Assembly: GCA_002281775.1 (NCBI GenBank)
Contig: NCGY01000003.1
Span: 112,696 to 176,695, forward strand
DNA length: 64,000 nt
Reading direction: 5' to 3'
Source of the DNA: Hydrogenophilales bacterium 16-64-46
Lineage (GTDB): Bacteria > Pseudomonadota > Gammaproteobacteria > Burkholderiales > Thiobacillaceae
In this document: positions 4,415-59,973 of the stretch, in pieces
Layout: each line of letters starts with the position of its first letter
Numbering within the stretch: the first letter of the stretch is position 1
The notes under the pieces: generated by a model
What the model was told of the DNA's origin: nothing
Seen by the model: the letters and a program-made list of their open reading frames with translations, nothing else
The model's database searches: none
Position numbers and translations under genes: made by a program

Positions 4415-7234
4415 ATGAACGCACCGACCCATCTCCTCACCGACGACCATCTGCGCGCGCAGGTCAAGCTTCTGGGCACGCTGCTCGGGCAGGTGTTGCT
4501 CCAGTTCGCGGGCGAGGATGTGTTCGACACCGTCGAAACCCTGCGTCGCGGCTTTGCCGAATTGCACCAGCAGGAAGACCAGGCGCGCCGCACCGAGCTG
4601 ATGGCGCTGATCGACGACCTGCCGCCGGAAAAAATCGAACTCGTGGTGCGGGGCTTCACCAGCTATTTCATGCTGGTGAACGTGGCGGAAGAGAGTTTTG
4701 CGCACCGCAATCGCCGCCGCATGCTGTCGCACGGCATGTCCTTGTGGGAAGGCTCATTCGACCGCACCGTCGGCGAACTGAAGACGCAAGGCCTCACCGC
4801 ATCGGCGTTCCAGGACATGGTGAACCGCCTGCACTTTGCGCCGGTGTTCACCGCGCACCCCACCGAGGCCCGTCGCCGCGCGGTGATGGAAGGCATGCGC
4901 CGTGTGTTCCTCATTTGTGATCAGCTCTACAGCCCGACCCTGGGCGTGAACGATCAGCGCGAACTGGAAACCCAGCTTGCAGCTGAAATCCAGACGATGT
5001 GGCGTACCGACGAGTTGCGCGCCGCCAAGCTGGAGGTGCGCGATGAAGTGCGCAATGGCCTCTACTACGTGCGCGAAAGCCTGTTCGAGGCCGTGCCCAG
5101 GGCCTACCAGTATTTCGAGAAAGCCCTGCGTCGTCACTATGGCGTGAGCGCCAACGGTGCCTCGCCGGTCACCGTGCCCAGCTTCATCCGCTTTGGTTCG
5201 TGGATAGGCGGCGACCGCGACGGCAACCCTTTCGTAACCGCCGATGTGACCGAATGGACGGTCTACACCCAGATGCAGGCCGCGCTCGACGAATATCGCG
5301 TGCGCGTGCTCGACCTGCGGCAGACGCTCACCCACAGCAGCGGCTGGTGCAAGCCGTCCGACGCCTTCCTCGAACGGCTGGCCGAATGCGAAAGCGAATA
5401 CGGCGAGCGGGTGTTCCGGGGCACCGCCGCACAAATTTACGTGCGCGAGCCCTATCGCCGCATGGCCGCGATCATGCTGGCTCGGCTGGACGCCAACCTG
5501 TCGTATGTGCACCAGGCGCTGGCGGATGTGCCGAGCTTCAAGCCGCATCTGGCCTACGACAACGCCAGCGTGTTTCTCGACGACCTGAGGCTGCTGCGCG
5601 ATTCGCTCATCAGCCACGGCGACCGGGTGGTGGCGATGCAGGGACTGCAATCGCTGATCCGTCTGGTGGAAAGCTTCGGTTTCCACCTGCTGCAGCTCGA
5701 CATCCGCCAGGAGTCCACCGTACATACCCGCACCGTGGCGTCGGTGCTGCAACAGATCGACCCGGATTTCGATTACGCCGCCGCCGACGAAGCCAGCCGG
5801 TTGACCCGGCTGGCCGCCTGGATCGGCCACATCGACCCGATCCCCGTCAACGACGCGGTGCTCGACGAAGAGGCACGCGAGGCGCTGGCGGTGTTCCGCC
5901 GCATGGCCAAGCTCTCTGCAGAAGTCGGCGACGAGTTGTTCGGTGCCTACGTGATTTCGATGACGCACAGTGCCAGCCACGTCATGGAAGTGATGCTGCT
6001 GGCGCGCCTGGTCGGGCTGGCGGGCCACACCGGCAGCGAATGGTTCTGCCGCATCCTGGTGGCACCGCTGTTCGAGACGGTGGAAGACCTGCAGCACAGC
6101 GAGGACATCCTCGACGACCTGCTGTCGAACCCGGTCTACCGGGCGCTCATCGCCGCCAACGGCAACCGCCAGGAAGTGATGCTCGGCTATTCCGACTCGT
6201 GCAAGGACGGCGGCATCCTCGCCTCCAACTGGAACCTCTATCAGGCCCAGCTCTCGATCATTGCGCTGACGCAGCATCATGGCGTCGAATGCCGCCTGTT
6301 CCATGGTCGCGGCGGTACGGTCGGGCGGGGCGGCGGCCCCACCCACGAAGCCATCCTGTCGCAGCCGCCCGGCACGGTCAATGGCGAAATCAAGTTCACC
6401 GAGCAGGGCGAGATGCTGTACTACAAGTACAGCAACCCGGAAACCGCCACTTATGAAATCGGTATGGGCGTCACCGGCCTGCTCAAGGCCAGCGCCACCG
6501 CGCTGGCCCACAGCGACGTGCGCTATCCGCAGGAATACCTCGACCGCATGCGCGACATCGCCGCAGCCGGTGAGTCTGCGTACCGTGCGCTGATCGGCAC
6601 CGAAGGCTTCATCGACTACTTCTACGAAAGCACGCCGGTCGCGGAAATCGGCACGCTCAACATCGGCAGCCGGCCGTCGCACCGCAAGAAAGCCGACCGT
6701 TCGCTGGGATCGATCCGTGCGATTCCCTGGGTGTTCGGCTGGTCGCAGTCGCGCCACACGCTGCCAGCGTGGTACGGCATCGGCAGCGCGCTGCGGCATT
6801 ATCAGGACGGCAGCGAACACGGCCTCGATCATCTGCGCGAGATGTACCGTGAGTGGCCGTTCTTCCGCGGGCTGCTCTCCAACGTGCAGATGGCCCTGAC
6901 CAAGGCGGACATCGAAATCGCCGAGGAATACGCGCGGCTGTGCGAGCACCCCAACGCCATGGGCGTGTACCGCGCCATTGCCGACGAATTCGCGCTCACC
7001 GTGGACAACGTCAAGCGCATCGCCGGCATCGAATCGCTACTGGAAGACAACCCGGCGCTGTCTCTGTCGATCTCGCGCCGCCGGCCCTACATCGACCCGA
7101 TCAACCATATCCAGGTGCGCATGCTCAAGCGCTACCGCACCGGTACGGTGTGGGAAGCCGAGCATGACACCTGGCTCACGCCGCTCAAGCGTTCCATCAA
7201 CGCCATCGCAGCCGGGATGCGCAACACCGGATGA
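4415..7234 (+). CDS. ppc: Phosphoenolpyruvate carboxylase
   Basis: VFTAHPTE, GSWIGGDRDGNP, QEVMLGYSDSCKDGG, FHGRGGTVGRGG, RAIPWVFGW; start taken at MNAPTH. Confidence 0.97.
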   Translation: MNAPTHLLTDDHLRAQVKLLGTLLGQVLLQFAGEDVFDTVETLRRGFAELHQQEDQARRTELMALIDDLPPEKIELVVRGFTSYFMLVNVAEESFAHRNRRRMLSHGMSLWEGSFDRTVGELKTQGLTASAFQDMVNRLHFAPVFTAHPTEARRRAVMEGMRRVFLICDQLYSPTLGVNDQRELETQLAAEIQTMWRTDELRAAKLEVRDEVRNGLYYVRESLFEAVPRAYQYFEKALRRHYGVSANGASPVTVPSFIRFGSWIGGDRDGNPFVTADVTEWTVYTQMQAALDEYRVRVLDLRQTLTHSSGWCKPSDAFLERLAECESEYGERVFRGTAAQIYVREPYRRMAAIMLARLDANLSYVHQALADVPSFKPHLAYDNASVFLDDLRLLRDSLISHGDRVVAMQGLQSLIRLVESFGFHLLQLDIRQESTVHTRTVASVLQQIDPDFDYAAADEASRLTRLAAWIGHIDPIPVNDAVLDEEAREALAVFRRMAKLSAEVGDELFGAYVISMTHSASHVMEVMLLARLVGLAGHTGSEWFCRILVAPLFETVEDLQHSEDILDDLLSNPVYRALIAANGNRQEVMLGYSDSCKDGGILASNWNLYQAQLSIIALTQHHGVECRLFHGRGGTVGRGGGPTHEAILSQPPGTVNGEIKFTEQGEMLYYKYSNPETATYEIGMGVTGLLKASATALAHSDVRYPQEYLDRMRDIAAAGESAYRALIGTEGFIDYFYESTPVAEIGTLNIGSRPSHRKKADRSLGSIRAIPWVFGWSQSRHTLPAWYGIGSALRHYQDGSEHGLDHLREMYREWPFFRGLLSNVQMALTKADIEIAEEYARLCEHPNAMGVYRAIADEFALTVDNVKRIAGIESLLEDNPALSLSISRRRPYIDPINHIQVRMLKRYRTGTVWEAEHDTWLTPLKRSINAIAAGMRNTG

Positions 7235-47674: not shown

Positions 47675-48760
47675 TCAGGTGATGATGCCGCCGCCCAGGC
47701 ACACCGCGCCGTCGTACAGCACCACGGATTGCCCGGGCGTGACGGCCCACTGCGGGCTGTCGAAGAGGAGTTCCAGCGTGTCGTCGTAGAGCGTGCTGAT
47801 GTGGCAGGCGGCGTCATGCTGGCGGTAGCGCGTCTTGGCGGTGTAGGCGCGCTCGGGATCGGGCGCAACGCCGGCAATCCACGAGAGCTGGGCGGCACCG
47901 AGGCTCGTGCGCTGCAGCAGCGGATGGTCGTGGCCCTGCACGACGACGAGGGTGTTGCTGGCCATGTCTTTCGCCGCAACGAACCAGGGTTCGCCGTCGC
48001 CGTCCTTCTGTCCGCCGATGCCCAGGCCCTGCCGTTGCCCCAGCGTGTAGTACATCAGCCCCTGGTGCTGGCCGACGACGCGGCCTTCGGGGGTGGTCAT
48101 CTCGCCGGGGTCGCGCGGCAGGTAGCGTTCGAGAAATTCGCGGAAGTTGCGCTCGCCGATGAAGCAGATGCCGGTACTGTCCTTTTTCTTCGCGTTGGGC
48201 AGGCCGATTTTTTCCGCCAGCGCGCGCACCTCGGGTTTGGGCAGCGCGGCAAGCGGAAAGAGGGCAGGCGCGAGCTGCTGCTGGCTCAGGCGATAGAGGA
48301 AATAGCTCTGGTCCTTGTTGGCGTCGTCGGCTTTAAGCAGCGTGGCGCGGCCGGCGGCGTCCTGGCCCTTGCCGACGTAGTGGCCGGTGGCGATGAAATC
48401 CGCGCCGCGCGCCACCGCGTCTTCGAGGAAGGCCTTGAACTTGATCTCGCTGTTGCACAGCACGTCCGGATTCGGTGTGCGGCCGGCCTGGTATTCGGCG
48501 AGGAAGTAGCTGAACACGCGTTCCTTGTATTCCTTGGCGAAGTTCACCGCCTCGACTTCGATGCCGAGCACGTCCGCCACCGCGAGCACGTCGAGAAAAT
48601 CCTGGCGTGCGGTGCAGGCGTCGGTGCCGTCGTCGTCGTCCCAGTTCTTCATGAACACGCCGAGCACGTCGTAACCCTGCTGCTTGAGCAAGTAGGCGGC
48701 CACGGCGGAATCGACACCACCCGAGAGGCCGACGACGACTTTGGAGGCAAGGTGGGTCAT
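47675..48760 (-). CDS. mnmA: tRNA 2-thiouridylase MnmA
   Basis: [44 protein letters not shown]. Confidence 0.98.
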
Positions 48761-48819
48761 GCGTGTGGTGGTGTCAGGGGGTGCACTATGCAGGGGGTCT
48801 GGTCAAACGGTGTTGTGTT

Positions 48820-49215
48820 TCACAGCAGCCGGGCAGGCTGGCCCAGCCCATCCAGCAGCGCAACGGCCTTGCGGTCAAAAGACACGAAGGTTTCGCCGCC
48901 CAGCCAGTTGCCCTCGTAGGCAATCACACCGTCGGCGAAATCTCCGCCCGCATCGAGTGTCGCCAATCCGGCTTCCACGGCGGGCCGGTTCATCTCCACG
49001 TTACCCGCCGCCAGCAGCGCGCGGATTGCGCTCGCCGCGTCGCTTGCAGTCAAACCATACACCGAGCGCAGCACCCACACGAATTCGCACAGACAGGGCG
49101 TGGCCACCGCGATCAGTTCGGCTTCGGTCAGCGTATGTGCGGCCTGGGCGCCTTGAGCCGGATCGTCGTTGACCACCGCACGCACCAGCACATTGGTGTC
49201 GACGGTTACCCTCAT
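48820..49215 (-). CDS. PIN/VapC family toxin
   Basis: VDTNVLVR, LCEFVW, DFADGV, SFD. Confidence 0.9.
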   Translation of the reverse strand: MRVTVDTNVLVRAVVNDDPAQGAQAAHTLTEAELIAVATPCLCEFVWVLRSVYGLTASDAASAIRALLAAGNVEMNRPAVEAGLATLDAGGDFADGVIAYEGNWLGGETFVSFDRKAVALLDGLGQPARLL

Positions 49216-49481
49216 TCAGCGCCTTCGTTTTTGTCCAGCCCGGCCCAGCCCCGGGCGGCGGCGGCGTTCAGCTCCTCGATCGTGGCCACTTTATCCGAGC
49301 GGTCTGCCAGCAGGCCGATAAAACTGTTGATTGCGCCAGCAGGCCGCGCTGCCTTGAGTAGCCCCCTGCCATCGGGCAACAAATCCAGTTCGATTTTTTC
49401 GCCCGGCTTGATCCCCAGGTGTTGCAACACTTCTTTTCGAAAGGTCACTTGCCCCCGTGCCGTCACGGTCAATGTCGTCAT
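49212..49481 (-). CDS. AbrB/MazE/SpoVT-type antitoxin
   Basis: LTVTARGQVTFRKEVLQHLGIKPG; upstream TTGAAA-N17-TACATT with GTAAtGC-N6-GCcTTAC operator. Confidence 0.88.
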   Translation of the reverse strand: MTTLTVTARGQVTFRKEVLQHLGIKPGEKIELDLLPDGRGLLKAARPAGAINSFIGLLADRSDKVATIEELNAAAARGWAGLDKNEGAE

Positions 49482-49588
49482 GGTGAAATCCTTTTCTTCG
49501 ACCCGAATGACCCGAATGTAATGCAGATACGCCTTACTTTCAATGCCGGCGGTGATGGGGCGGTGAGGGCGGCGCGGAGGTTGCCGCG

Positions 49589-49927
49589 TCAAACGCCGAG
49601 CACGTGCTTCATCGCCGCGCGCACGGCGCGCGCGTCGGTCGGGGCAAGCTGGCCGAGCGTATTGCGGATGAGGCGGTTGTCGAGCGTGAAGAGCTTGAAG
49701 CGCAGCCGCGAGGGCGCAGGCAACCCGGCGGCGGCAAGATCGGCGAGCAGATGATCGTGCGGCCAGGGGGGATTGTCCGCCGAGGTGATCATCGCCAGCA
49801 CGCTGTGCCCGGCGGGGGTGTTGAACACCGTGGCGTCCGAGAGCACCAGCGCGGGGCGGTTTTTCGTCGCCGCGCGGTCGGTGAACGGAAACGGCACACG
49901 CACCACGGCAAAGCGCTCAAAGCTCAC
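49589..49927 (-). CDS. PemK/MazF family toxin
   Basis: VRVPFPFTDRAATKNRPALVLS, AMITS; GTG start overlaps antitoxin stop. Confidence 0.88.
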   Translation of the reverse strand: MSFERFAVVRVPFPFTDRAATKNRPALVLSDATVFNTPAGHSVLAMITSADNPPWPHDHLLADLAAAGLPAPSRLRFKLFTLDNRLIRNTLGQLAPTDARAVRAAMKHVLGV

Positions 49928-50147
49928 GGTAAGCCGCCTCGTCCGCGTCGCTCGACCATTCGGCCAGCGTGCCTTCCAGCGCGCGCAGGTATTCCAGGTC
50001 GAGCGGCGCGGCACGGCGCACGCGCGCCACGCCGTCATCGCCTACTTCCCACACAATGCTGTCGCCCGGCGACAGCCCGAGTGCTGCGCGCACCGACTGC
50101 GGAATCGTGGTTTGTCCCTTGCTGGTGATTTTGGCGAGCGCGTTCAT
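49917..50147 (-). CDS. AbrB/MazE/PrlF-type antitoxin
   Basis: KITSKGQTTIPQSVRAALGL; CCTTAC-T-GTAAGG palindrome at 50176-50188. Confidence 0.88.
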   Translation of the reverse strand: MNALAKITSKGQTTIPQSVRAALGLSPGDSIVWEVGDDGVARVRRAAPLDLEYLRALEGTLAEWSSDADEAAYREL

Positions 50148-50226
50148 GATGGCGTCCGGTAAGTTGTCATTGCTTCCTTACTGTAAGGCGATCTGGGCGG
50201 ACACGCAAGCCGCGCCCGTGGCTCCA

Positions 50227-53200
50227 TCACCCCGCCCGGTAGCGCCCGTCGGCCAAGCGCTGTGCCCGTCCAAAGTCCACCAGCGCATCGAGCAGCCCGG
50301 GCAGGGCTTTTTGCAGACCACGCGCCTTGTCGAAACCGGCAGCGAGTTCTGCAGGGGTTTGCGGCGCATCGCTGAGCAGGCGGGCGAGCGCGCCGAGCTG
50401 GTCGGGCAGTGCGGCGGGCCAGACAGGTTTGCGCGTGGCAACGGGCGCAATGGCGGGCGCGTCGGTGGCGGGCAGATCGAGTACGACGGTGGTATGAGCG
50501 GGTGCTTGGTACGCTGGGCGCAAAAAACGTACCTGGCCAGCGGCTTCTTCGGTGGCGCGCTCGGCGTTGAGGGCGACAAGACGTTCGAGCAGCGCGCTGT
50601 CGTCGGGCGCGTCGTCCCAGCCGTAGGCGGCCAGCACGGCGGCGTCGAGTTCGTCGTGCAGGGTGTTCAGCACGCCGACCAGGCCCTGCGTGTACACGGT
50701 TTTGTCTTTGGCGGTGAGCGGCTCGCCGGTTCGGAGTTTTTCCCGCACGTTGTACACGCCGGTGAGCGTCAGCTCCGGGTGCATGGCCTGCTGGCGCTTG
50801 CGGTGGGCGTCGAGGCGTTCGGCCAGGTCGCGGATCGTCGCCTGCTGGTCTGGGGTGGCGGCGGGGAAGGGGAATTTTTCGAAACACACGCCCTTGTTGT
50901 AGCGCGGGTCGTTACCAACTCCCAGCCGCCCACCCGCCGCCAGCGCCCAGGCAACATGCACGCGCGAGGACAGCACGCCCAGCATCCAGGCGTCGTCGTG
51001 GGCGATACAGACGAGCATGTTGTCGGGCGCGATGGCGGCGTCGAGAAACTGGAAGACGCGGTGTTTCGCGGTTTCGACGGTGGCGATGTAGCGCGGCAGG
51101 CCGGTGAACATTTTGCGGAGTTCGCGACGCGGCTCGCCAAACAGCCACCAGTTGTCGCGGTAGGTCGCGCGCTGGTTGTGATCGCGTTCGGGTTTCACGC
51201 GGTCTAAAAGCCATTGCCAGACGGTGGGGTACTGCGCGCGCAACGTGGCTTCATCGTAACCCCAGGCGTCGATGACGAGCACGCCGCGCGGTTTGTCGGT
51301 GATGTCGCGGCCGTTGCGGTAGGGGCGGATGAGTGCGGGCGCGGCCAGTTCAGCAGCCTCGTCGGGGGTGACGATGAAGCCCGCGCCGTGGAGTTTAAAA
51401 CCGGGCGAGCTGATGTTCCCGTTCGCCCGCAACGCCACCGCTGCCGCGACGTTGGCACCGACGCGCAAGTTCGCATGGATCGCGCCGCTGCGTTCGGCGA
51501 GTTCGACATCGATCTCGCCGTCCGTCCCCGGGGTTTCGCGGCTGACGGCGAGGAGCCGCCCGTCGCCCGCGCCGGGCGCGGCGACGGTCATCGCCACGCG
51601 CACGGCCGCGCCGTTGGCTTCGTCCACCCAGGGGTGGTCGGCAATGGCCCAGGCCAGGTGCAGCGCATCCAGATGCTGTTCCAGCACCCGTCGGTTGAAG
51701 GTTTGCGTGAGGCTGTTGGTGGTGATGAAGCCGAAGCGGCGAATTTTGTTTTCGCGCAGCAACCGCGCGGCGTGATCCCACCAGAACATGACGAGGTCGG
51801 CGGACTCGGGCACGCCCGGGTGCGTCTGCCGCAGGGCATCGACGTAACCGTCGCCGAGCGCCTGCCGCAGGGTGGACGCGCCGATGAAGGGCGGGTTGCC
51901 GACGACGAAGTCGGCAGCCGGCCAGACGGCGGCGTGCGGGTCGAGATAGCGCACGACGGCGGCGCGGGCGGATTCGTCGGGCACGGGCTTGCCGGTGACG
52001 GGGTGCGGTTTGAAGCTGACGCCGTCCCAGCGGGTGAGCGGCTGGCCGGCTTCATCCTGCACGGCTTCGATGCGGCGCCAGTCGAGCACGGCGTCGCGGC
52101 ATTCGATGTTTTTGAAATCGCGCAGCACCGGCGTGGGCGGCAGGGCGTGGCCACGGTTTCTGAAGTGCCATTGCAGATGGCCGATCCATAACACCAGCTC
52201 GGCCACCGCTGCGGCGCGCGGGTTGCGTTCCAGCCCCAGGAATTGATGCGGATCGACGGTGAGGCCTTCGGTGTCGAGTTCCTGTTGTTGCATGGTGCCG
52301 TCTTTGCTGGCCGCGCTTTGCAGCGCACCCAGCAGTTCGAGCACTTCGGCTTCGAGCCGTTTCAGGTGTTCCAGCGCCACGTAGAGAAAGTTGCCGGAAC
52401 CGCAGGCGGGGTCGAGCACGCGGGTGGCGCACAGGGTCTGGTGAAAGCCGCGCGCGAGTTTGAGCGCAGCGGCGGCGTCGCCCCGATCCATGAGCGCGAG
52501 CGCGGCGGTCTGCACGTTGAGCCAGTCGGCGCGCAGCGGTTCGACCAGCGTGGGCAGCACCAGGCGTTCGACATAGGCGCGCGGGGTGAAGTGCGCGCCC
52601 AGCGCGTGGCGCTCGGCGGGGTCGAGTGCGCGCTCGATGAGCGTGCCGAAAATGGCGGGTTCGACGTGCTTCCAGTCGGCGCGGGCGGCGGCGAGCAGGG
52701 TTTCGAGCTGGGGGCGGGTAAGTTCCAGCGCGACGGGAATCTTGAACAGCTTGCCGTTGAAGTGGGGAATGGTTTTGCGCAGCGCGACGGAATAGCCGCC
52801 GCTGTCCATTTTTTGCCAGAGTTCTTCGATGCTGGGCTTGAACGAGGCGGGCTCGACACAGGCGGCGACGACGATGTCGGTGAAGCCGCCGGCGGGCAAG
52901 AGGCCGACGTCTTCGGCAAACATGGTGAAGAGGCAGCGGGTGAGGAAACCGGCGACGGCGTGCGGTTCGTGATCGGCTTCGAGGCCGCGCGCGAGCTGGC
53001 CGAGATGCGCGGCGACTTCGCGGGTGACGCGGGCGGCGATGCGCGCGGGGTCGAGCGCGGCAGGCTCGGTGAAAACCCGTTTGAGTCGGTCGCGCACGGC
53101 GTCGTGCGCGAGGTCGGTGATGGCGATGCGATAGCTCGCCCGATCCGGAAAATATTCGTAGCTGCGGTCGTTGTCGCGGAATTGGGCGTAGAGCGCAATG

Positions 53201-53586
53201 AAGCGCCCGACGTTGGCGACCATGAGAAATACCGGACGCGGCTCGGACGCGGGAAGGTTGCGCGCGTAGCTTTCGGCCTGCGCCTTGGCCTTGATGAGCT
53301 TGTTGGCGGCGGCGTCCAGATCGCGACCGAGGTGAAAGCTCTTGGATTCGCAGATGAAATGGCCGCGCTTGTAGGTGTCGATGAAGCGCGCCGCGCCCGC
53401 GCCGGATTCGTCGAGCGCGTCGATGTGGCGCTCAAAGACGTAGGCGTTGTCTGCGTCGTTCGCCTGCGCGGGCAGGGGTTTGTCCACCCCGAGCAGTTCG
53501 CACAGGTCGTTGAAAAAAAGCTGGTAGTTGGCGCGCTCGCTGCCGGATGCGCCGTTCCATTTGGCGATGAAGGACTGCGGGGTCAT
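50227..53586 (-). CDS. Single-chain restriction-methylase, MmeI / Type IIL-IIG like
   Basis: N-terminal D...ExK (FIDTYKRGHFICESK), HFTPRAYV, VLDPACGSGNFL, GNPPFIG, TRD-like C-terminal half; start at MTPQSF. Confidence 0.88.
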   Translation of the reverse strand: MTPQSFIAKWNGASGSERANYQLFFNDLCELLGVDKPLPAQANDADNAYVFERHIDALDESGAGAARFIDTYKRGHFICESKSFHLGRDLDAAANKLIKAKAQAESYARNLPASEPRPVFLMVANVGRFIALYAQFRDNDRSYEYFPDRASYRIAITDLAHDAVRDRLKRVFTEPAALDPARIAARVTREVAAHLGQLARGLEADHEPHAVAGFLTRCLFTMFAEDVGLLPAGGFTDIVVAACVEPASFKPSIEELWQKMDSGGYSVALRKTIPHFNGKLFKIPVALELTRPQLETLLAAARADWKHVEPAIFGTLIERALDPAERHALGAHFTPRAYVERLVLPTLVEPLRADWLNVQTAALALMDRGDAAAALKLARGFHQTLCATRVLDPACGSGNFLYVALEHLKRLEAEVLELLGALQSAASKDGTMQQQELDTEGLTVDPHQFLGLERNPRAAAVAELVLWIGHLQWHFRNRGHALPPTPVLRDFKNIECRDAVLDWRRIEAVQDEAGQPLTRWDGVSFKPHPVTGKPVPDESARAAVVRYLDPHAAVWPAADFVVGNPPFIGASTLRQALGDGYVDALRQTHPGVPESADLVMFWWDHAARLLRENKIRRFGFITTNSLTQTFNRRVLEQHLDALHLAWAIADHPWVDEANGAAVRVAMTVAAPGAGDGRLLAVSRETPGTDGEIDVELAERSGAIHANLRVGANVAAAVALRANGNISSPGFKLHGAGFIVTPDEAAELAAPALIRPYRNGRDITDKPRGVLVIDAWGYDEATLRAQYPTVWQWLLDRVKPERDHNQRATYRDNWWLFGEPRRELRKMFTGLPRYIATVETAKHRVFQFLDAAIAPDNMLVCIAHDDAWMLGVLSSRVHVAWALAAGGRLGVGNDPRYNKGVCFEKFPFPAATPDQQATIRDLAERLDAHRKRQQAMHPELTLTGVYNVREKLRTGEPLTAKDKTVYTQGLVGVLNTLHDELDAAVLAAYGWDDAPDDSALLERLVALNAERATEEAAGQVRFLRPAYQAPAHTTVVLDLPATDAPAIAPVATRKPVWPAALPDQLGALARLLSDAPQTPAELAAGFDKARGLQKALPGLLDALVDFGRAQRLADGRYRAG

Positions 53587-53915
53587 GGGGCGGGAGGGTC
53601 TTCGCACAGCCAGGCTGGCAGATCGCGCTGCGCGTGAAGAATGCGCCAGACGTCGATGTGGTCTGGCCGCTCGACATAAAAAACCATGTAGGGGAAGCGT
53701 TTGAGCGGCCATACACGCAAGCCCGGCAAACCCAATTCGTGGTCGAAGCGCGACGATCCTGCCGCGGGGTGGCGGGCAAGCTGAGCGATGGCGCGTTCGA
53801 GCGCGTCGAGAAAAAGCCGGGCAGCATCGGGCGCATTCTGCGACCGATACCAGTCGATCACGGTTTCGGTATCGCGTGTGGCGATCCGTCGCGGTACGAC
53901 GGGTTTGACGCTCAC
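53583..53915 (-). CDS. ParE/RelE family toxin
   Basis: ATRDTET..DWY...HPAAGS...RVWPLKRFPYMVFY...RILHAQRD. Confidence 0.9.
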   Translation of the reverse strand: MSVKPVVPRRIATRDTETVIDWYRSQNAPDAARLFLDALERAIAQLARHPAAGSSRFDHELGLPGLRVWPLKRFPYMVFYVERPDHIDVWRILHAQRDLPAWLCEDPPAP

Positions 53916-54148
53916 CCGCGCGGCGCGTCAATGCGCTGGCGCAAGACTTCGAAATAGGCCGCGTCGGCGGGGCGATCCGGCGCGGAAGCCGCACCTTCGA
54001 GCAGCAAGGCCCGCAGGTTCTGGCGCTCCTGATCTTTGCGGATCAGCTCGCGCATGTATTCGCTGCTGGTGCCGTAGCCGCGTTCAGTGACCTGATTATC
54101 GACAAAAGCCTTGAGTGAATCCGGCAGGGAAATATTCATTGTGCTCAT
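53912..54148 (-). CDS. ParD/CopG RHH antitoxin
   Basis: MSTMNISLPDSLKAFVD...YGTSSEYMRELIR. Confidence 0.9.
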   Translation of the reverse strand: MSTMNISLPDSLKAFVDNQVTERGYGTSSEYMRELIRKDQERQNLRALLLEGAASAPDRPADAAYFEVLRQRIDAPRG

Positions 54149-54155
54149 GGGCGGG

Positions 54156-54184
54156 ATACTAGGCATGTTGGCAAAATTTGGCAA
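54156..54184 (-). promoter_or_regulatory. Sigma70 promoter of parDE-RM operon, probably leaderless
   Basis: TTGCCA-N17-TAGTAT, 7 nt before the ATG; TTGCCAA occurs twice (possible RHH operator). Confidence 0.6.
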
Positions 54185-54202
54185 TAGCAGGTCAGAGGCA
54201 GG

Positions 54203-54325
54203 TCAGGTAAATAGCGCGGTGATCAGCCAGAGCACGCCGAATCCGATCAGCAGGATTGCGATTCCCAGCGCGAGACCTTCAAACGCGCCTTTGGCGATTG
54301 CTACATAAAAATTGTCTTTATCCAC
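54203..54325 (-). CDS. 40-aa single-pass membrane protein, not in ORF track
   Basis: GTG start with AAGGA upstream; MDKDNFYVAIAKGAFEGLALGIAILLIGFGVLWLITALFT. Confidence 0.55.
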   Translation of the reverse strand: MDKDNFYVAIAKGAFEGLALGIAILLIGFGVLWLITALFT

Positions 54326-54393
54326 AGAAAATCCTTGATTGCGGGTTATGGGGGAGTTACCTCAGGCTACAAGGGCGCGTTCGCGCTGCGGTG

Positions 54394-56268
54394 TCAAACC
54401 GCCTCCCCGCTGACCACGCATTCCAGCCGATCCCACGGCAGTCGCTCGGGCTGGGCGCGGGCGAAGCGGCAGACCAGCGCCTCGCCCGCATCCAGCCGCC
54501 GCGCGATATTGATGTTGAACGGACGCGGCAGGTAGCCGAGTTTGCGGCCTTGCCAGGCGACGAGCACGGCAAGCGGGTCGTGGGGGTTGTCGGGCTCGCG
54601 CACGAGTTCGAGCAGCTGGCCGGGCGTGAGGCGGGTTTCCAGCGCTGGATCACGGTTGTAGGCATAACCGGTGATGTGGGAGAACAGCAGCGCGCCCGCA
54701 GGCAGAGGCGGGTTGCGCCGCGCGGCGATCCAGGCCAGCGCGCGGCTTAGGCGGCGCTCGCTTTCGGCGTCGAGGCGCAGGGCGGGCGGACGACAAGGGG
54801 TGTCGCTGACGGTGTCCCGCCAGTGCCCGAGACGCACGCGCTGCGGGCGCAGCTCGGGGGCGTTGAGATGGATTTCCACTTGCTGCGCGAACAGCTCCAT
54901 GAGATAGCCCGCGTCGGCATTGCACGGGCCGCGCAGTTGCACGAGTTTGAAATGCAGGTCGTCGCCCCGCTGCTGGATGTCGTACTGCGCGGTGGCGCGC
55001 CCGCCTTTGGGCAGGGTGAGCGAGACGATGCGCGTGTCACCTTCGGCGATGTCGTCCCAGTAACTGGCGACGCAGTGGTGCAGGGCATCGCCTTCGTCGG
55101 CGAGTGTGTCGTAGTCGAGTAGCTCGCGCGCGATGCTCAGATTGCGGTCGAGCACGCCGAAAAGTGCGGGGACGGGGATATCCCGCGTCGGCACGATAGC
55201 AGTCTGGCGCGGGTGTCGGTGCCAGCGCACCGAGGCGTCGAGCAGTGACGTCAGGCCGTGACGCGCGAGCCAGGCGTGGCCGAGCGTTGCGTCGTCGCCG
55301 TCCAGGTTGGCGTCGAGTTCGAGCGCACGGGCCATGGCGACGCGCAGAAAATCGCGGCAGTCGTCGATGGCATTGCCGAGGGGATTGAAGCGCGCTTCGA
55401 GCGCGGTCCACAGCGCAGCCCAACCTGGCTTGAACAACGTGGCGGCCAGTTCGAGCAGGGCGGGTTCGCCGACCAGGCGTTCGAGCGCGGCGACATAGGG
55501 CGCGCCACGTTCGAGTTCGGCCCGGCTCGCCGGGCGCGCGTGGGCGGGAATGCGGTCGAGCAGCTGCACCATGCGCGTGTGCGCGATGCCGAGATCGCCC
55601 CACATTTCGCTGCACACCGGCGCGCGCACCAGGCTGCGCGAAACACCGTAATGCGCGGCGAGCACGCCGGCGAGATCGCGCCCCTGCAACGCGGCATCGA
55701 CCACCTCGTCGTCGTGATCGCGCCAGGCGAAACGCTTGCCGCCGCAGGTGTCGGTCGCGTGGTGCGCGGTGAGCAGGATCGGTGCGGCGAGCACGGGAAA
55801 CCGCTCGACCGCCTGTTGCCGCCGGCGGCCTTCTTCGCCTGATACGAGCCGGTTGTAATTGCGGCACGAACTCCAGAAGCGGTGCGCGTCGAGCCGGGCA
55901 AGGCATTCGAGTATGCCCTGGTCGAGCCCGGCGGCGAAACGCCGTGCCTCGGCGTGTCTGGCATGGCCCCAGGCGAGCGCGGGCATCGGCGCGGCAGGCG
56001 CGGCGTAGAGCACGATGGGGAGGAGGAGAGCGCGAGGCACGTCCACTTCGAGCACCTCGCCGCGCGCATCATCGGCAATGCCTTCGACGATGGCGGGGAT
56101 CAGCGCGTCGTCGCCGAGCAAATGCGCTGCGAGACGAAAGGCAAGCACCCGCCCGTCGGCCAGATGCAGCCACAGCAGCGCCGCTTCGGTGGCTTCGCCG
56201 TATTCGCGCGTGGTGAGCCACAGGCGTGCGCGGACGGCGTTACAGGTCGCAGTCATCGTCGCCGCCAA
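54394..56268 (-). CDS. PcfJ-like domain protein with C-terminal HIRAN domain
   Basis: LADEGDALHHCVASY...VQLRGPCN (PcfJ-like); LVREPDNPHDPLAV...KLGYLPR (HIRAN); start may be 56256. Confidence 0.78.
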   Translation of the reverse strand: MAATMTATCNAVRARLWLTTREYGEATEAALLWLHLADGRVLAFRLAAHLLGDDALIPAIVEGIADDARGEVLEVDVPRALLLPIVLYAAPAAPMPALAWGHARHAEARRFAAGLDQGILECLARLDAHRFWSSCRNYNRLVSGEEGRRRQQAVERFPVLAAPILLTAHHATDTCGGKRFAWRDHDDEVVDAALQGRDLAGVLAAHYGVSRSLVRAPVCSEMWGDLGIAHTRMVQLLDRIPAHARPASRAELERGAPYVAALERLVGEPALLELAATLFKPGWAALWTALEARFNPLGNAIDDCRDFLRVAMARALELDANLDGDDATLGHAWLARHGLTSLLDASVRWHRHPRQTAIVPTRDIPVPALFGVLDRNLSIARELLDYDTLADEGDALHHCVASYWDDIAEGDTRIVSLTLPKGGRATAQYDIQQRGDDLHFKLVQLRGPCNADAGYLMELFAQQVEIHLNAPELRPQRVRLGHWRDTVSDTPCRPPALRLDAESERRLSRALAWIAARRNPPLPAGALLFSHITGYAYNRDPALETRLTPGQLLELVREPDNPHDPLAVLVAWQGRKLGYLPRPFNINIARRLDAGEALVCRFARAQPERLPWDRLECVVSGEAV

Positions 56269-56476
56269 ACAGGCTGAACAGTCCGCCGATACCCAGAAGC
56301 AGCAGGGGGAAAGCCAGGATCAGCCAGAGCGCCGCGAGAAGAAAAATGATGAAGATCCCCCAGAACACCAACTTGGCAGTGAACAGGGGGGCGACCTGAA
56401 ACATGCTGAAGCCGATAACGCCGATGATGGCCGCCCAAAGCCACTCGGCGTCCGAATATTGTCTGGGTGTTTTAAT
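56240..56476 (-). CDS. ~78-aa hydrophobic membrane protein without canonical start, not in ORF track
   Basis: KTPRQYSDAEWLWAAIIGVIGFSMFQVAPLFTAKLVFWGIFIIFLLAALWLILAFPLLLLGIGGLFSLFGGDDDCDL*; ATT 7 nt after AGGAG, or ATG shifted by one extra A. Confidence 0.5.
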   Translation of the reverse strand: MKTPRQYSDAEWLWAAIIGVIGFSMFQVAPLFTAKLVFWGIFIIFLLAALWLILAFPLLLLGIGGLFSLFGGDDDCDL

Positions 56477-56519
56477 TTTTCATCTCCTGATGCAAGAGGT
56501 TTGATCATCGTGCGGCAGG

Positions 56520-56538
56520 CGATCAAAAACTGATCGGG
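56520..56538. promoter_or_regulatory. Palindromic site copy 1, candidate WYL-regulator site
   Basis: CGATCA-AAAAC-TGATCG-GG; 18/19 identical to 58964-58982. Confidence 0.65.
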
Positions 56539-56591
56539 AGCCGGCAGGTTGGGCAAAATATCAAGTTGCTGGAGACGCAATAGGCTAGGCC

Positions 56592-57665
56592 TTGAGCGGC
56601 GAATCCACCCTGGCCGACTTCCGCCGCGACTTTCTCGCCACGGTGGAAAAACAGGGCTGGAAGGACTTCACCGGCGACGACCGTGCCACGCAGGGCCGCA
56701 CCGGCGGGCGCGGGCTGGCTTGGCGCACCCGCACCATCTACCAGACCAACATCGCCGCCAGCTACGCCGCCGGGCGCTGGCAGCAACTCAACGCCCCCGA
56801 CCTGTTGGCCGCCCGCCCCTACTGGCGCTACGTGCATTCGGATTTTGTCGGCAACCCGCGCCCGCGCCACAAGGCATGGGGCGACAGCGGGCTGACCCTG
56901 CGCCACGACCATCCCTTCTGGAAAACCCATTTTCCGCCCAACGGATGGGGTTGCCGGTGCAGCGTCAAGGCCGTGCCCGCGCCGAAGGACGGCGACGCCA
57001 CCGCGCCGCCGGTCGGCTGGGATGCGCGAGACGGCAAGGGGCGTCTGCCGGGGATCGACAGGGGTTGGGATTACGCGCCGGGAGCGACATGGAACCCTTG
57101 GGACAGGCTGGCAGGGCTGCCCGATTGCGATGGACTGGCAGCGTTGGCGGCGGGCGGGCCGTGTATCCCTAAGGCAGGCAGGCAGCCTGCTGACTGGCGT
57201 TCGGAGCAGCGTCCCGATCTGCGCGATGTTCCGCCAGTATTGCGCTTGCCGTCGCCGCCCTTGTTACCGAAGGCAAAAGACCGCAGCGAGGCGGTCGAGA
57301 TGCTGGCGCAGGCGTTGGGGATTTCCTCCGCCAACCCCTACCGGGTGGTCGATACTCCATGGTATGGCATGGTTCCGCTCGCCTACGAGAGGCTGCCGCA
57401 TATGGTGGGCAAGGAAAGGGATGCGCGGGAGCGTTACGCGAATTTCATTTTGCCGACGCTGATGCAGCCGTATGAAATATGGGAAACCGCCTACGCGGAC
57501 GGGACAACGCGACCGCGCTTCATTGGTCTATTTGACGGCCCCGCGCAAGTGATGGTGGTCGTTAGAATCGACCGTGACGGCCGGGTATTCTGGAATTACA
57601 TGCAGGCGAAAAACAAGGACATGAATGCCCACCGCGAGGGGGTCAGCCTGGTCTATCGTAAATGA
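56592..57665 (+). CDS. Phage Mu gpF-like (MuF) protein, N-truncated, with C-terminal BECR/PBECR2-like nuclease domain
   Basis: IYQTNIAASYAAGRW, RPYWRY, HPFWKTHFPPNGWGCRC (MuF); HMVGKERDARERYANFILPTLMQPYEIW...FIGLF...FWNY C-terminal domain. Confidence 0.75.
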   Translation: MSGESTLADFRRDFLATVEKQGWKDFTGDDRATQGRTGGRGLAWRTRTIYQTNIAASYAAGRWQQLNAPDLLAARPYWRYVHSDFVGNPRPRHKAWGDSGLTLRHDHPFWKTHFPPNGWGCRCSVKAVPAPKDGDATAPPVGWDARDGKGRLPGIDRGWDYAPGATWNPWDRLAGLPDCDGLAALAAGGPCIPKAGRQPADWRSEQRPDLRDVPPVLRLPSPPLLPKAKDRSEAVEMLAQALGISSANPYRVVDTPWYGMVPLAYERLPHMVGKERDARERYANFILPTLMQPYEIWETAYADGTTRPRFIGLFDGPAQVMVVVRIDRDGRVFWNYMQAKNKDMNAHREGVSLVYRK

Positions 57666-57668
57666 TGG

Positions 57669-57767
57669 AAACGCTCCGGGGTCCCGTTCCGCGCGCCTGT
57701 CGGTGCGCCGGAGCCCTTCCGCCGGGTATTGAGCCGACACTCACCCGGGTTCGCGCCCGGAGCGTTT
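57669..57767 (+). ncRNA. Candidate structured RNA directly after the MuF-nuclease gene
   Basis: Perfect 12-bp closing stem AAACGCTCCGGG/CCCGGAGCGTTT, two internal hairpins, TGTCGG/CCGACA complementarity between them. Confidence 0.55.
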
Positions 57768-57786
57768 GAGCAAAGGATAGCAAACA

Positions 57787-58272
57787 ATGGCACTGCTGCA
57801 AATTGACATAGACGACCGAGCCGTGCTCGACGTGCTGGCCAAACTGGCGAAGCGCGCGGGCAACCTCGCACCGGCGCTGACCCAGATCGGCGAAGAATTG
57901 CGCGATTCGACCCAGCGCCGCTTCGCCACCGGCACCGGCCCGGACGGCCAGCGCTGGGCACCCAACAGCCAGACCACGCTGCTGCGTTACCTGGGCAGCA
58001 AGGATCGCCCCGGCGGGCTGTTCGGCAAGCGCGACGGCAAATTGACGAAAAAAGGCGTGGGCGCGGCGCTGGGCAAAAAGCCGCTGGTGGACAGCGGCAC
58101 GCTGGCGAGCACGATCAATTACCAGTTGGCCGATGGTGGGCGCACGCTGCTGGTGGGTAGCAAGGCTCAGGAAAAGCTGATAACGATGCCAAGCAGAACA
58201 AGTACCACAAAAGCCAGCAATCCAAGCTGGACGACAAACCATAGGGTATTGAAGACGGCGTCCAAGAGCTGA
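57787..58272 (+). pseudogene. Phage virion morphogenesis protein (Mu gpG-like), 3'-truncated near 58161
   Basis: IGEELRDSTQRRF...PDGQRW...PLVDSGTLASTI...LLVGS, after which similarity stops where the convergent gene ends. Confidence 0.75.
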
Positions 58273-58940
58273 GCGGCTGGCGTAGGTGAATTGCAGAAGC
58301 GGGGTACGCCGTCGAAAACTGGGCGGTGCCGGGTGTGCACACTGTCCAGTTTGTCGAGTGCCTCCAGCATGTCGTCTTGGCTGAGCGTTTTGATCCGTGC
58401 AAGGAATAGGTGTAGCTCGGGCGATGCCGTCAGGGTAAGGCAAGTTTCAATTTCCAATACGGGATGCCTATCGTTCCACAGCCCGCGCGCTTCGAGCACA
58501 GCGCGTGGCGCAGCAAGAACGGCAAGGAGTTCGTCGAGCCAGGTGAGGATTTCGCGCAGGGTGTGGGTATAGGCGGCGGGCAGCAGGTGACGGGCGTCGT
58601 GCGTGAGCGGGGGTGAGACGATGTGCGCTGCGGCGGCACGGCCTTCGATCAGGCGGTCGATTTCAGCTTCGAGGAGGGCGACGGCACGATGGGCGTCGGC
58701 CTCGCTGGCGTTCGGGTTGGCCAGCACGTCGCCATTCGTGTCGTTCAGCCGCTGTGTGATGCGGGCGGCAATGTTTTCGAACGTATCAAGGTGTTGTTGC
58801 AGCGTGACGGAGGCATCCACTGGATTCGTGCGCTTAGTCCGAGCGGAAGAGCTAGTGAGTTCGGCCCGCAGCCGTTCGGCAAGGCGGGTGAGCGCGTTGC
58901 CGAAGGCGATGAGTCGAGGCGGCAGGGTGAAGTCGGTCAT
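58167..58940 (-). CDS. Hypothetical helical protein with C-terminal TM anchor
   Basis: 257-aa ORF ending LWFVVQLGLLAFVVLVLLGIVISFS. Confidence 0.7.
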   Translation of the reverse strand: MTDFTLPPRLIAFGNALTRLAERLRAELTSSSARTKRTNPVDASVTLQQHLDTFENIAARITQRLNDTNGDVLANPNASEADAHRAVALLEAEIDRLIEGRAAAAHIVSPPLTHDARHLLPAAYTHTLREILTWLDELLAVLAAPRAVLEARGLWNDRHPVLEIETCLTLTASPELHLFLARIKTLSQDDMLEALDKLDSVHTRHRPVFDGVPRFCNSPTPAAQLLDAVFNTLWFVVQLGLLAFVVLVLLGIVISFS

Positions 58941-58960
58941 GCTGCCAGTTTGTACCGATT

Positions 58961-58983
58961 ACCCGATCAAAACCTGATCGGGT
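58961..58983. promoter_or_regulatory. Palindromic site copy 2, candidate WYL-regulator site
   Basis: Perfect ACCCGATCA-AAACC-TGATCGGGT between the WYL stop and the next ATG. Confidence 0.7.
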
Positions 58984-58991
58984 GACGGCAA

Positions 58992-59960
58992 TCAGTTGTA
59001 GCGCGCGAGGCTTTCCGACAAACGGCGTTTGACCCATTCGCGCAGGTCGGCGGGCGCGACGACTTCGACTTCCGGCCCGTATTTGAGGATGTCCATGACG
59101 AGTTCGGTGGGGTTGCCGTAGGGCACGGCCAGCTCGTAGCTGCCGTCGATGAGGAAGTGGCCGCTTTGTTCGCGGTGCCAGCGTTCATCGGCGACCCAGC
59201 GCGCGGCATTGGCAGAAAACCGCAGCACAGCGGTGTGGCGGGCGCTACCCGAGAAGATGCCGTAGGCGCTGGCGTAATGCGCATTTTGAGTGGCTTCGTC
59301 TACTGCAATGGCGGCCTCGGGGCGGCGCTCGGGGGCTTCGATGCGGTCGAGCGAAAAGCTGCGCAGACCGTTGCGCAAATGACACCAGGCGTCGAGATAC
59401 CAGTTGCTCTTGTACCAGGCCAGCCGCAGAGGCGAAACGGTACGGCGTGCGTGGTCGTTGCGGATGCGACCGCGATAGGTGAAGGCCAGTTGTTGACCGT
59501 CGGCGAGCGCGCCTGCGACGGCGCGGAATACGCTGTCATCGACTTTGCGCGCGGCGAGTGCGATGAGTTTGACGCGCTGGCGAAGCTGGCCACCGCCGGG
59601 CTGGCGCTGTTCGAGCAGGGCTTCGAGGCGTTTGACCAGCGGTGCGATTTCCTCGCCGAGCAGGCCGGGCTCGACTTCGGATAACCATTGGTGCGCCGCC
59701 AGCAGGGCGTGGAGTTCGGACGCGGAAAACCACAGGCCGGGGAGTTCGTAAGTTGTTTCTTCGTTCTGTTCGTAGACCCAGCCGCCGCGCGCGCGATCAA
59801 AACGCACCGGCGCGCCGAGCTCGTCGCGCAGTTTGGCGATGAGACGCCGGACGGTGGGTTCGGAACATTCGAGCTTCTGTATCAGTTCGTGGGTGGTGAC
59901 GGGCGTGCGCCGCCCGGCGAGGAAACCATGCAGATCGTAGAGGCGGTCGAATTTGTTCAT
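58992..59960 (-). CDS. HTH-WYL regulator, YafY/DriD/PafBC type
   Basis: ELIQKLECSEPTVRRLIAKLRDELGAP; VSPLRLAWYKSNWYLDAWCHLRNGLRSFSLDRI; start at MNKFDR. Confidence 0.92.
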   Translation of the reverse strand: MNKFDRLYDLHGFLAGRRTPVTTHELIQKLECSEPTVRRLIAKLRDELGAPVRFDRARGGWVYEQNEETTYELPGLWFSASELHALLAAHQWLSEVEPGLLGEEIAPLVKRLEALLEQRQPGGGQLRQRVKLIALAARKVDDSVFRAVAGALADGQQLAFTYRGRIRNDHARRTVSPLRLAWYKSNWYLDAWCHLRNGLRSFSLDRIEAPERRPEAAIAVDEATQNAHYASAYGIFSGSARHTAVLRFSANAARWVADERWHREQSGHFLIDGSYELAVPYGNPTELVMDILKYGPEVEVVAPADLREWVKRRLSESLARYN

Positions 59961-59973
59961 GCGCCGGATGCGT

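Follow-up and report, generated by a model that had tools for sequence, protein, structure and literature searches.

Since 2014, transcription regulators with a WYL domain have reportedly been observed next to defence genes, those of CRISPR-Cas among them, and CRISPR-associated WYL proteins are said to have been described by Makarova et al. in that year; Sll7009 of Synechocystis is one such CRISPR-associated WYL protein. To our knowledge, the operator and the mode of action are established for few WYL regulators (DriD, PafBC, SiwR, CapW and BrxR). Here we examine a WYL regulator encoded in a stretch of 64,000 nucleotides from Hydrogenophilales bacterium 16-64-46 (contig NCGY01000003.1; the whole stretch is hereafter called the window), together with two nearly identical palindromes that we predict to be its operators. 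In the literature we found no published operator or promoter model for the clade to which this regulator belongs.

The closest described systems differ in their operators and in the position at which they act on the promoter. DriD of Caulobacter crescentus is an activator that is itself activated by single-stranded DNA (ssDNA) and that governs a DNA damage response independent of the SOS system (PMC10853764, PMC9186387). In mycobacteria a -26 element allows PafBC, and apparently SiwR as well, to activate promoters devoid of a -35 box, a mode of action called 'sigma adaptation' (PMC8635444, PMC10693628). Set beside these systems, the present one looks like a DriD-like homodimer that acts on a palindrome at a PafBC-like promoter position. 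The comparative data presented below make it very probable that the two palindromes are operators of the WYL regulator. With moderate confidence, we propose that a WYL homodimer uses these operators, placed in promoters lacking a -35 box, for the ligand-dependent activation of two transcription units, one of which encodes p257, a tail-anchored membrane protein of 257 residues, and the other a protein with PcfJ and HIRAN domains (PcfJ-HIRAN).

A preliminary description of this DNA had reported two near-identical repeats, and both 19-mers were found where it had placed them (CGATCAAAAACTGATCGGG at 56520-56538 and CGATCAAAACCTGATCGGG at 58964-58982). Its statement that there is no further copy in the window was also borne out: matches to the 19-mer with 3 or fewer mismatches occur at these two places alone (0.01 expected), none of 100 shuffled windows reached two matches, exact GATCA-N5-TGATC is confined to the same two places within the window, and a search of the window for the extended 21-mer with 5 or fewer mismatches gave no third copy. 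The extended palindromes, operators A and B (Table 1), are direct repeats with an asymmetric spacer of 5 nt whose T-run points toward the gene. Operator A lies 9 nt 3' of the WYL stop codon and agrees with the family consensus derived below at every position compared (core mismatches 0, arm pairs 5/5). Both sites had been placed 20-45 bp upstream of a gene, which is correct for operator A (21 nt to the ATG of p257 at 58940) and holds for operator B if the small membrane protein that follows starts at the ATT codon at 56476 (41 nt), but not if it starts at the first ATG of that open reading frame at 56404 (113 nt).

A scan of the window for consensus sigma-70 promoters returned no match, in keeping with the earlier remark that neither site has a clear -35 box. 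Downstream of each operator lies a hexamer that we predict to be the -10 element (Table 1). At promoter A the ATG of p257 follows 6 nt after CAAACT (CAAACT-GGCAGC-ATG), and the p257 mRNA is therefore probably leaderless; closer relatives of the locus have CACACT or AATACT at this place. At promoter B the hexamer is GATGAT or CATGAT in three relatives (L081, L083 and L212) and GAGAAT in a fourth (L214). The ATG of the downstream gene stands exactly 6 nt past a -10-like hexamer in four distant loci, as it does for p257, and this spacing fits leaderless starts in all five. If the conserved hexamer is the -10 element, the palindrome would extend from about -41 to -21 with its centre near -31, and its proximal half-site would occupy about -28 to -21. 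A TTGACA-like hexamer 16-18 nt upstream of the -10 element cannot be placed, because the centre of the palindrome occupies that position.

Closer relatives of the locus were recovered from metagenome assemblies (contigs L081-L087, L212 and L214; regulator identity 82-97%). Every one of them carries between one and four copies of CGATCA...TGATCG, each located before a gene cassette, so that each cassette has its own operator-promoter. Two sites are present in L081 and L082 (97% regulator identity), where operator B is identical and its leader virtually identical to the window. In L083-85 (83%) one site precedes a gene of 377 residues and the other a 34-residue peptide followed by PcfJ-HIRAN, while L086/87 have a single site ahead of an operon comprising a 380-residue protein, a 296-residue p257 homologue (p296) and PcfJ-HIRAN. 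L214 contains three sites and L212 four. Homologues of operator B with its promoter and leader occur in L083-85, L212 (twice) and L214. The sequence (A)CTT precedes most of the close-lineage operators in L081, L212 and L214 (e.g. 7014-7017 of L214), and the two sites of the window have TCA and CTC instead; this 5' flank could provide an additional contact upstream or could reflect how the modules were copied. In L212, positions 3128-4039 hold a tandem duplication of 595 bp that begins at a site and takes in the operator-promoter, the gene of the small membrane protein and codons 1-69 of PcfJ-HIRAN.

The element is also found apart from the regulator gene. In L086 a BrnT/BrnA toxin-antitoxin pair has been inserted past the WYL gene (2400-3430), where a stretch of about 50 bp from the 3' end of that gene is duplicated on its flanks, and the operator remained with the downstream target operon, apart from the WYL gene. 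A contig of Fontimonas sp. (L089) carries CGGGCTCGGTTTTTGAGCCCG, a perfect operator of the family type, at 6878-6898, followed after 8 nt by AACAAT, upstream of a PcfJ-HIRAN gene, and in L090 a similar palindrome lies ahead of a p257-like gene that is followed by PcfJ-HIRAN. No WYL gene was found near PcfJ-HIRAN in either contig within a flank of 7 kb on each side; the element thus travels with its targets and can presumably be served in trans. That the regulon is self-contained, as originally proposed, cannot be shown from 64 kb, and L089, where no WYL gene lies within 7 kb of the element, speaks for action in trans. Downstream in the same contig there is a DUF499/DUF1156-type gene cluster. 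A further relative of PcfJ-HIRAN (P0138) could not be placed on a contig. The pattern CCGATCAGNTTTTGATCG was tried as a metagenome-wide probe for the regulon and rejected: it gave at least 120 matches, and among the matches listed none has a WYL, p257 or PcfJ-HIRAN homologue. Such matches are noise at that pattern length and are therefore uninformative on further regulon members.

The operator was traced further in distant orthologues, sampled as one genome per species; 435 loci had relatives, and the best 80 were kept (L001-L080; beta- and gamma-proteobacteria with 45-53% regulator identity). Exact GATCA-N5-TGATC is absent beside these 80 genes. The arms are lineage-specific, and the comparison was therefore made at the level of the core and of the palindrome. 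Many orthologous loci have a palindrome of the form nnnnnTCA(C/G)GTTTTGAnnnnn directly past the WYL stop codon on the gene strand. Sites were scored as core matches plus arm pairs (maximum 15), and each locus was represented by its best-scoring site between -40 and +250 nt relative to the stop codon. A score of at least 12 was reached in 24 of the 80 loci and a score of at least 11 in 34, as against 0.5% and 2.8% of control windows of the same loci. The stringent sites lie 5-15 nt past the stop codon, nearly always in the orientation of the gene. An alignment of 33 sites showed C7 and G15 to be invariant and the T-run to be on the downstream side in all. It also revealed a second conserved block, G-TA..A. 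(positions 29-35), 8 nt past the palindrome, in which position 31 is A or T in 33/33; this block resembles a -10 hexamer of the (G)TAnAAT type. Conservation beside orthologous WYL genes thus extends to the palindrome core, its position and its spacing, and the exact GATCA arms were found in the closer relatives instead.

In 19 of the 80 loci cas3 follows directly after the WYL gene with the operator between them, and in 3 of the 80 cas1 does so. A HIRAN gene is located nearby in 10/80, and in the two loci checked (L001 and L002) it stands directly behind the operator; other cargo past the operator includes RmuC, a YhcG-type nuclease, and SEC-C, SWIM/DUF6880 and PIN proteins. The common theme of the cargo in this regulator clade is nucleic-acid processing and defence. 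The module of operator and -10 element stands ahead of cargo genes at, for example, L012 8981, L026 7208, L043 8991 and L047 7293, and from its location before cas3 we predict that a WYL regulator controls cas3 in many proteobacteria. A different palindrome (AAGAAGTTCGCGA...TCGCGAACTTCTT) was observed immediately before the WYL start in L048, L050, L053, L055 and L065; it might terminate transcription of the upstream gene or serve as a control element in its own right.

The arms of the palindrome vary by lineage, stay palindromic and follow the recognition helix of the adjacent regulator. In the window the recognition helix spans residues 32-41 (CSEPTVRRLI), and helices of the form TVRRL(I/V)AK pair with the arm GATCG. 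Other pairings are TARR with GACCAGG, T(V/I)(F/Y)R with GATAG, TLTR with GAGCA, T(V/I)ER with GAGGG and TV(R/K)R-II with GAGCC. Residue 38 and arm position 2 share 0.79 bit of mutual information (permutation p <= 0.0005), and a partial Mantel test of arm distance against helix distance, with the distance of the rest of the protein removed, gave r 0.38 (p = 0.0002). These statistics, together with the positional data, point to the adjacent WYL protein as the natural binder. The earlier proposal of a WYL regulator with matching operators in promoters that lack a -35 box accordingly finds support in the family-wide position of the element, in the covariation of helix and arm, and in the presence of sites in every closer relative.

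The regulator itself has matches to HTH_11 (1.4e-6, residues 6-59), WYL (1.1e-19, residues 144-210) and WCX (1.6e-16, residues 241-316) in Pfam, all above the cut-offs. The same database agreed with the domain assignments made from the sequence for this and other proteins of the locus (HTH_11-WYL-WCX, PcfJ plus HIRAN, Phage_Mu_F plus PBECR2, and Phage_tail_S). The regulator had been called DriD-type, a label that the profile comparisons do not sustain. Among solved structures with sequence matches at E <= 1e-3, PafBC is nearest (1.3e-19), DriD matches at about 1e-7 over the WYL-WCX part alone, and the best family matches are the CRISPR-associated WYL profiles of PADLOC (PDLC01457 at 6.7e-40 and PDLC01652 at 2.1e-35). 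No BrxR or CapW chains are among the PDB matches at that threshold, and the BrxR and CapW models in PADLOC gave no match. In a weak pairwise alignment (35 bits) with DriD, 6 of the 9 positions that contact ssDNA are kept or conservatively replaced: Y168, R178, Y192 and R204 are retained, and W206 and Y240 are each replaced by F (contacts per PMC9186387). A nucleic-acid ligand is therefore plausible. The scan of the window found no operator copy upstream of the WYL start, and there is no second WYL reading frame among the annotated genes of the island in which the locus lies; the regulator is probably made together with the upstream housekeeping genes, by constitutive read-through from rluE and the NUDIX hydrolase gene.

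Comparison with the described systems places the locus between several of them. It resembles DriD in that a single gene encodes a homodimer of winged helix-turn-helix (wHTH), WYL and WCX domains, in its palindrome of about 21 bp with a T/A-rich centre, in the sharing of one box by several promoters, and in having a small membrane protein among the targets, which is DidA in the case of DriD and for which the small membrane proteins and p257 stand in ours. The DriD operator, however, is ATACGAC-N7-GTCGTAT (core CGxC-N7-GxCG; PMC10853764), whereas the operator described here is CCCGATCA-N5-TGATCGGG with a family core of TCA-sGTTT-TGA, so that half-sites of CGAC-N7-GTCG contrast with TCA-N5-TGA and lineage-specific arms. 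The DriD box ends at -36 (didA) or further upstream (PMC9186387), and the present one, by the predicted starts, at about -21, where it replaces the -35 box. A box is also found in the driD-type gene's own promoter in 68 of 69 alpha-proteobacterial homologues, in contrast to the present locus with no copy before the regulator gene. When the conserved hexamer is taken as the -10 element, the promoters would resemble those of PafBC and SiwR, which have a -10 element, no -35 box and a regulator-specific element at about -23 to -28, in that their proximal half-site would fall at about -28 to -21. PafBC, however, is a heterodimer or a fusion of two WYL proteins that recognizes a non-palindromic motif and depends on RNA polymerase for binding; here we find one gene of 322 codons, a full palindrome reaching to about -41, and a proteobacterial rather than an actinobacterial host.

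The clade of CRISPR-associated WYL proteins is similar in its best profile, PDLC01457, and in that the 80 orthologues include the 22 located directly before cas3 or cas1 with an operator between. It differs from the present locus in its targets: those predicted here are PcfJ-HIRAN and membrane proteins, and cas genes were found neither in the annotation of the island nor among the gene tables of L081-L087, L212 and L214. BrxR and CapW, WYL repressors located beside BREX (bacteriophage exclusion) and CBASS (cyclic oligonucleotide-based antiphage signalling system) genes and other defence islands, likewise head variable defence-type islands, use a palindromic operator and have cargo that varies among relatives, but they show no match to our regulator among PDB sequences at E <= 1e-3 or among the PADLOC models, and the promoter architecture described here argues for activation.

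In the explanation that we favour, a WYL homodimer would occupy both palindromes, each of which would be integral to a promoter that lacks a -35 box and has its -10-like hexamer 8-9 nt further downstream. A nucleic-acid ligand (ssDNA by analogy) would enter the WYL/WCX pocket, and the regulator would then bind or reorient on its operators and recruit RNA polymerase, standing in for the missing -35 contact. This would switch on p257, from a probably leaderless mRNA, as the first unit, and the small membrane protein, PcfJ-HIRAN and a 40-residue peptide as the second. Ligand-dependent activation is favoured because the proximal half-site, at about -28 to -21, would take the position that the -26 element has in promoters of PafBC and SiwR. 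Control by activation rather than repression appears fairly likely from the sequence, since the -35 box is absent, the -10 hexamers are weak, the spacing is fixed and the asymmetric spacer is locked in orientation. A damage or phage response is plausible, and so is independence of LexA, the latter solely on the evidence that no SOS box of the CTGT-N8-ACAG type was found near either promoter; window-wide counts of such boxes are at chance.

Several points weigh against this explanation. The predicted -10 hexamers in the window (CAAACT/TACAAA and GATGAT) are weak, and about half of the 80 orthologous loci have no clear site behind the gene. The regulator need not be the neighbour, as L089 shows, and the assignment of the sites to this WYL protein rests on the correlation of helix and arm, for which the statistics correct only in part for shared ancestry. 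Three of the 9 DriD ligand contacts are not kept in the 35-bit alignment. Finally, an operator over -41 to -21 would also suit a repressor, and CapW and BrxR, the WYL regulators linked with defence, are described as repressors (PMC12887000, PMC10853764).

This last point leads to the most serious alternative, in which operators and regulator are the same but the WYL protein is a CapW/BrxR-like repressor that blocks RNA polymerase until a ligand releases it. The palindrome does cover the region where sigma region 4 would sit, and the cargo of the island is of the defence type (an MmeI-family restriction-modification enzyme and ParDE), as are the cas3 and cas1 genes that stand behind orthologues. 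With no recognizable -35 box and weak -10 hexamers, however, there would be little basal promoter to repress, while the fixed spacing of 8-9 nt to the -10 hexamer and the orientation-locked T-run speak for a site that functions as an element of the promoter. At E <= 1e-3, moreover, the activators PafBC and DriD are among the PDB sequence matches, and CapW and BrxR are not. We therefore regard repression as possible though rather unlikely.

A second alternative treats the repeats mainly as recombination joints of a cassette array, either as recombinase sites or as breakage-prone palindromes, so that their likeness would stem from cassette shuffling. The island in which they lie is an accessory one. 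In L215-L218 mnmA follows directly after the NUDIX gene with an overlap of 4 nt (NUDIX protein at least 90% identical to that of the window by cluster membership), and in a blastn comparison of the window with L215 homology ends at 59974 and resumes at 48739. The proteins of the flanking genes cluster with proteins from Thiobacillus metagenome-assembled genomes. On the minus strand the order is RluE-type pseudouridine synthase, NUDIX hydrolase, WYL regulator, operator A and p257, and then, past a Mu-like cassette of 1627 bp, operator B and the genes beyond. Between the repeats, the number and order of cassettes vary among relatives with one to four sites. Homology between the window and L081 is lost at two points, the final base of the p257 stop codon and a position 1 nt outside operator B, and the Mu-like piece replaces positions 3174-4730 of L081, a Cys_rich_CPCC gene of 512 codons; the same slot is empty in L214.

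The Mu-like piece bears on the same question. L212 holds a diverged copy of the truncated cassette (580-2111) in the same antisense orientation but in another slot, between the regulator-proximal operator and the operator of p253. Its G' is 55% identical to that of the window, and its F' is 31% identical with an internal deletion of 71 residues. F' is truncated N-terminally at the same point in both, and in each case that end lies directly against the 5' edge of an operator. The two G' copies are 55% identical to each other and at most 36% identical to any sequenced phage; because they are closer to each other than to phages, a common origin of the two pieces is favoured and their independent capture was rejected. 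A copy from a prophage elsewhere in the window was likewise rejected, as no second copy was found there. The earlier suggestion that the module was later interrupted by a Mu fragment does not hold: no operon is split, and the piece fills a variable slot. Relatives without the piece (L081, L083 and L214) already have an operator-promoter for each cassette, and the layout with two promoters is therefore older than the Mu-like piece. The piece may be a domesticated cassette or a by-product of breakage and unequal crossing-over at repeated palindromic promoters.

The breakpoint beside operator B, the truncated F' end at a site and the L212 duplication that begins at a site all speak for recombination at the repeats. 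Nevertheless, no recombinase gene was identified among the genes annotated between the NUDIX and MmeI genes, and the other breakpoint with L081 is the p257 stop codon and not a repeat, so that the 2.4 kb between the repeats is not a unit. Integron attC-like sites, by comparison, bound their cassettes on both sides and have a recombinase nearby, and here one breakpoint lies at a site and neither property is seen. Recombination would also leave unexplained the conserved core, the spacing to the -10 element across orthologues of 45-53% identity with unrelated cargo, and the covariation of helix and arm. As the main function of the repeats it is very improbable; as a secondary consequence of having promoter modules in repeated copies, it would agree with the activation of promoters by a WYL homodimer.

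It is scarcely credible that the palindromes act as RNA or ssDNA hairpins (a terminator or processing site of the WYL transcript) instead of as duplex protein sites, since, despite hairpins that are predicted to be stable (-20.4 and -14.8 kcal/mol, with z-scores of -5.3 and -3.2), arms that change in sequence yet keep their complementarity as stems do, and the location of site A in the 3' region of the WYL gene, no U-tract stands behind the stem (the T-run sits in the loop), site B and the sites of L086 and L089 are not behind a WYL gene, the fixed spacing to the -10 element and the leaderless ATGs puts the element upstream of transcripts, and Rfam holds no matching family. A terminator at site A was considered separately and rejected; the stem listed next to it by the scan is not the palindrome, and no proper U-tract follows.

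The predicted targets are mostly unfamiliar proteins. No family was found for p257 in Pfam (one sub-threshold match to TraY), PADLOC, NCBIfam or PHROG, and its relatives fall into 6 clusters alone. It stays behind operator A in L081, L212 and L214, and its homologue in L086 (296 residues) is fused to the tail of the small membrane protein and stands directly before PcfJ-HIRAN. The small membrane protein probably starts at ATT 56476: an AGGAG is located 7 nt before this codon (56474-56488), and its N-terminus PRQYSDAEWLWAAIIG, residues of which precede the first ATG, is conserved with the 34-residue peptide of L083. A mini-ORF of 3 codons with an ATG overlaps this ATT start. The C-terminus (...FGGDDDCDL) is encoded in an overlap of 17 nt (56240-56256) with the start of PcfJ-HIRAN, and a conserved coding region for GGDD(D)CD(L) overlaps the PcfJ-HIRAN start in all relatives. 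The membrane proteins may be damage-induced division inhibitors like DidA or abortive-infection effectors.

PcfJ-HIRAN, the main conserved target, belongs to a rare family of 63 clusters. Its AlphaFold2 model has a mean predicted local distance difference test score (pLDDT) of 89.9, and in a fold search the HIRAN part alone had relatives in the PDB (e.g. the HIRAN domain of HLTF), while no PDB relative was found for the N-terminal part of about 520 residues, which is confidently folded. The HLTF HIRAN domain binds DNA 3' ends. Residues E378, E388, G389, H394, C395 and Y399 are invariant (motif MHHC), which hints at a role in catalysis or metal binding. The MmeI-family enzyme is also found behind PcfJ-HIRAN in L081, L083 and L086. 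Of the cassette proteins of the relatives, neither the 377-residue protein of L083 nor the CPCC protein of L081 has an NCBIfam or PHROG family; in the Pfam table the former has no match and the latter, of 512 residues, matches Cys_rich_CPCC alone.

Table 1. Features of the locus, in window coordinates, listed along the minus strand after the island as a whole; operators and -10 elements are predictions.
Feature	Position	Strand	Description or evidence
Accessory island, 11.2 kb	48752-59973	.	between NUDIX gene (stop 59974) and mnmA (start 48751)
WYL-domain transcription factor, 322 residues (wHTH - WYL - WCX)	58992-59960	-	Pfam; start 14 nt after NUDIX stop
Operator A (site 2 of the preliminary description)	58962-58982	-	CCCGATCAGGTTTTGATCGGG, read 58982->58962; perfect 8+8 bp palindrome, 5-nt spacer
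Predicted -10 of promoter A	58947-58954	-	TACAAA / CAAACT, 7-9 nt past operator A
p257, 257-residue tail-anchored membrane protein, first target	58167-58940	-	open reading frame
Mu-like cassette, 1627 bp	56540-58166 in full	+ (antisense to operon)	Pfam, PHROG, comparison with phage H71
G'	57787 to about 58165	+	Phage_tail_S, 3'-truncated
F'	56592-57665	+	Phage_Mu_F + PBECR2 nuclease domain; about 60 N-terminal residues missing
Operator B (site 1 of the preliminary description)	56518-56538	-	CCCGATCAGTTTTTGATCGCC, read 56538->56518; 6+6 bp arms
Predicted -10 of promoter B	56504-56509	-	GATGAT, 8 nt past operator B; in the register of the family -10
Small membrane protein	56240-56476	-	78 residues from ATT 56476 (AGGAG 7 nt upstream); 54 residues from ATG 56404
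PcfJ + HIRAN protein, 620 residues, main conserved target	54394-56256	-	Pfam HIRAN 1.3e-11, PcfJ 4.3e-9
40-residue membrane peptide downstream of PcfJ-HIRAN	54203-54325	-	open reading frame; 77.5% in L081
ParD	53912-54148	-	Pfam; operator control putative
ParE	53583-53915	-	Pfam; operator control putative
MmeI-family restriction-modification enzyme	50227-53577	-	Pfam; operator control putative

Taken together, the comparative sequence data give good support to the view that this locus is a new, well-delineated member of the known WYL class of nucleic-acid-sensing switches and not a new kind of system. A broader reading, which we offer tentatively, as possible though rather unlikely, is that a large proteobacterial clade of homodimeric WYL regulators would share one switch, a 21-bp palindrome whose arms are specific to the lineage around a TCA-sGTTT-TGA core. 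It would cover the -35/-26 region of promoters that are often leaderless and have no -35 box. Through such a switch a nucleic-acid signal would turn on interchangeable defence or repair cassettes (cas3, cas1, RmuC, HIRAN, p257/PcfJ-HIRAN and possibly a domesticated Mu F'(PBECR2)-G'), and the operator-promoters would double as joints for the duplication, loss and exchange of cassettes. The locus and its relatives provide an operator-promoter model, comprising sequence, spacing, orientation and a predicted helix code, for a widespread and apparently uncharacterised proteobacterial clade. For many beta- and gamma-proteobacteria this model offers a prediction of how cas3 is turned on, and it nominates the rare orphan pair of membrane protein and PcfJ-HIRAN as an inducible response to damage or phage.

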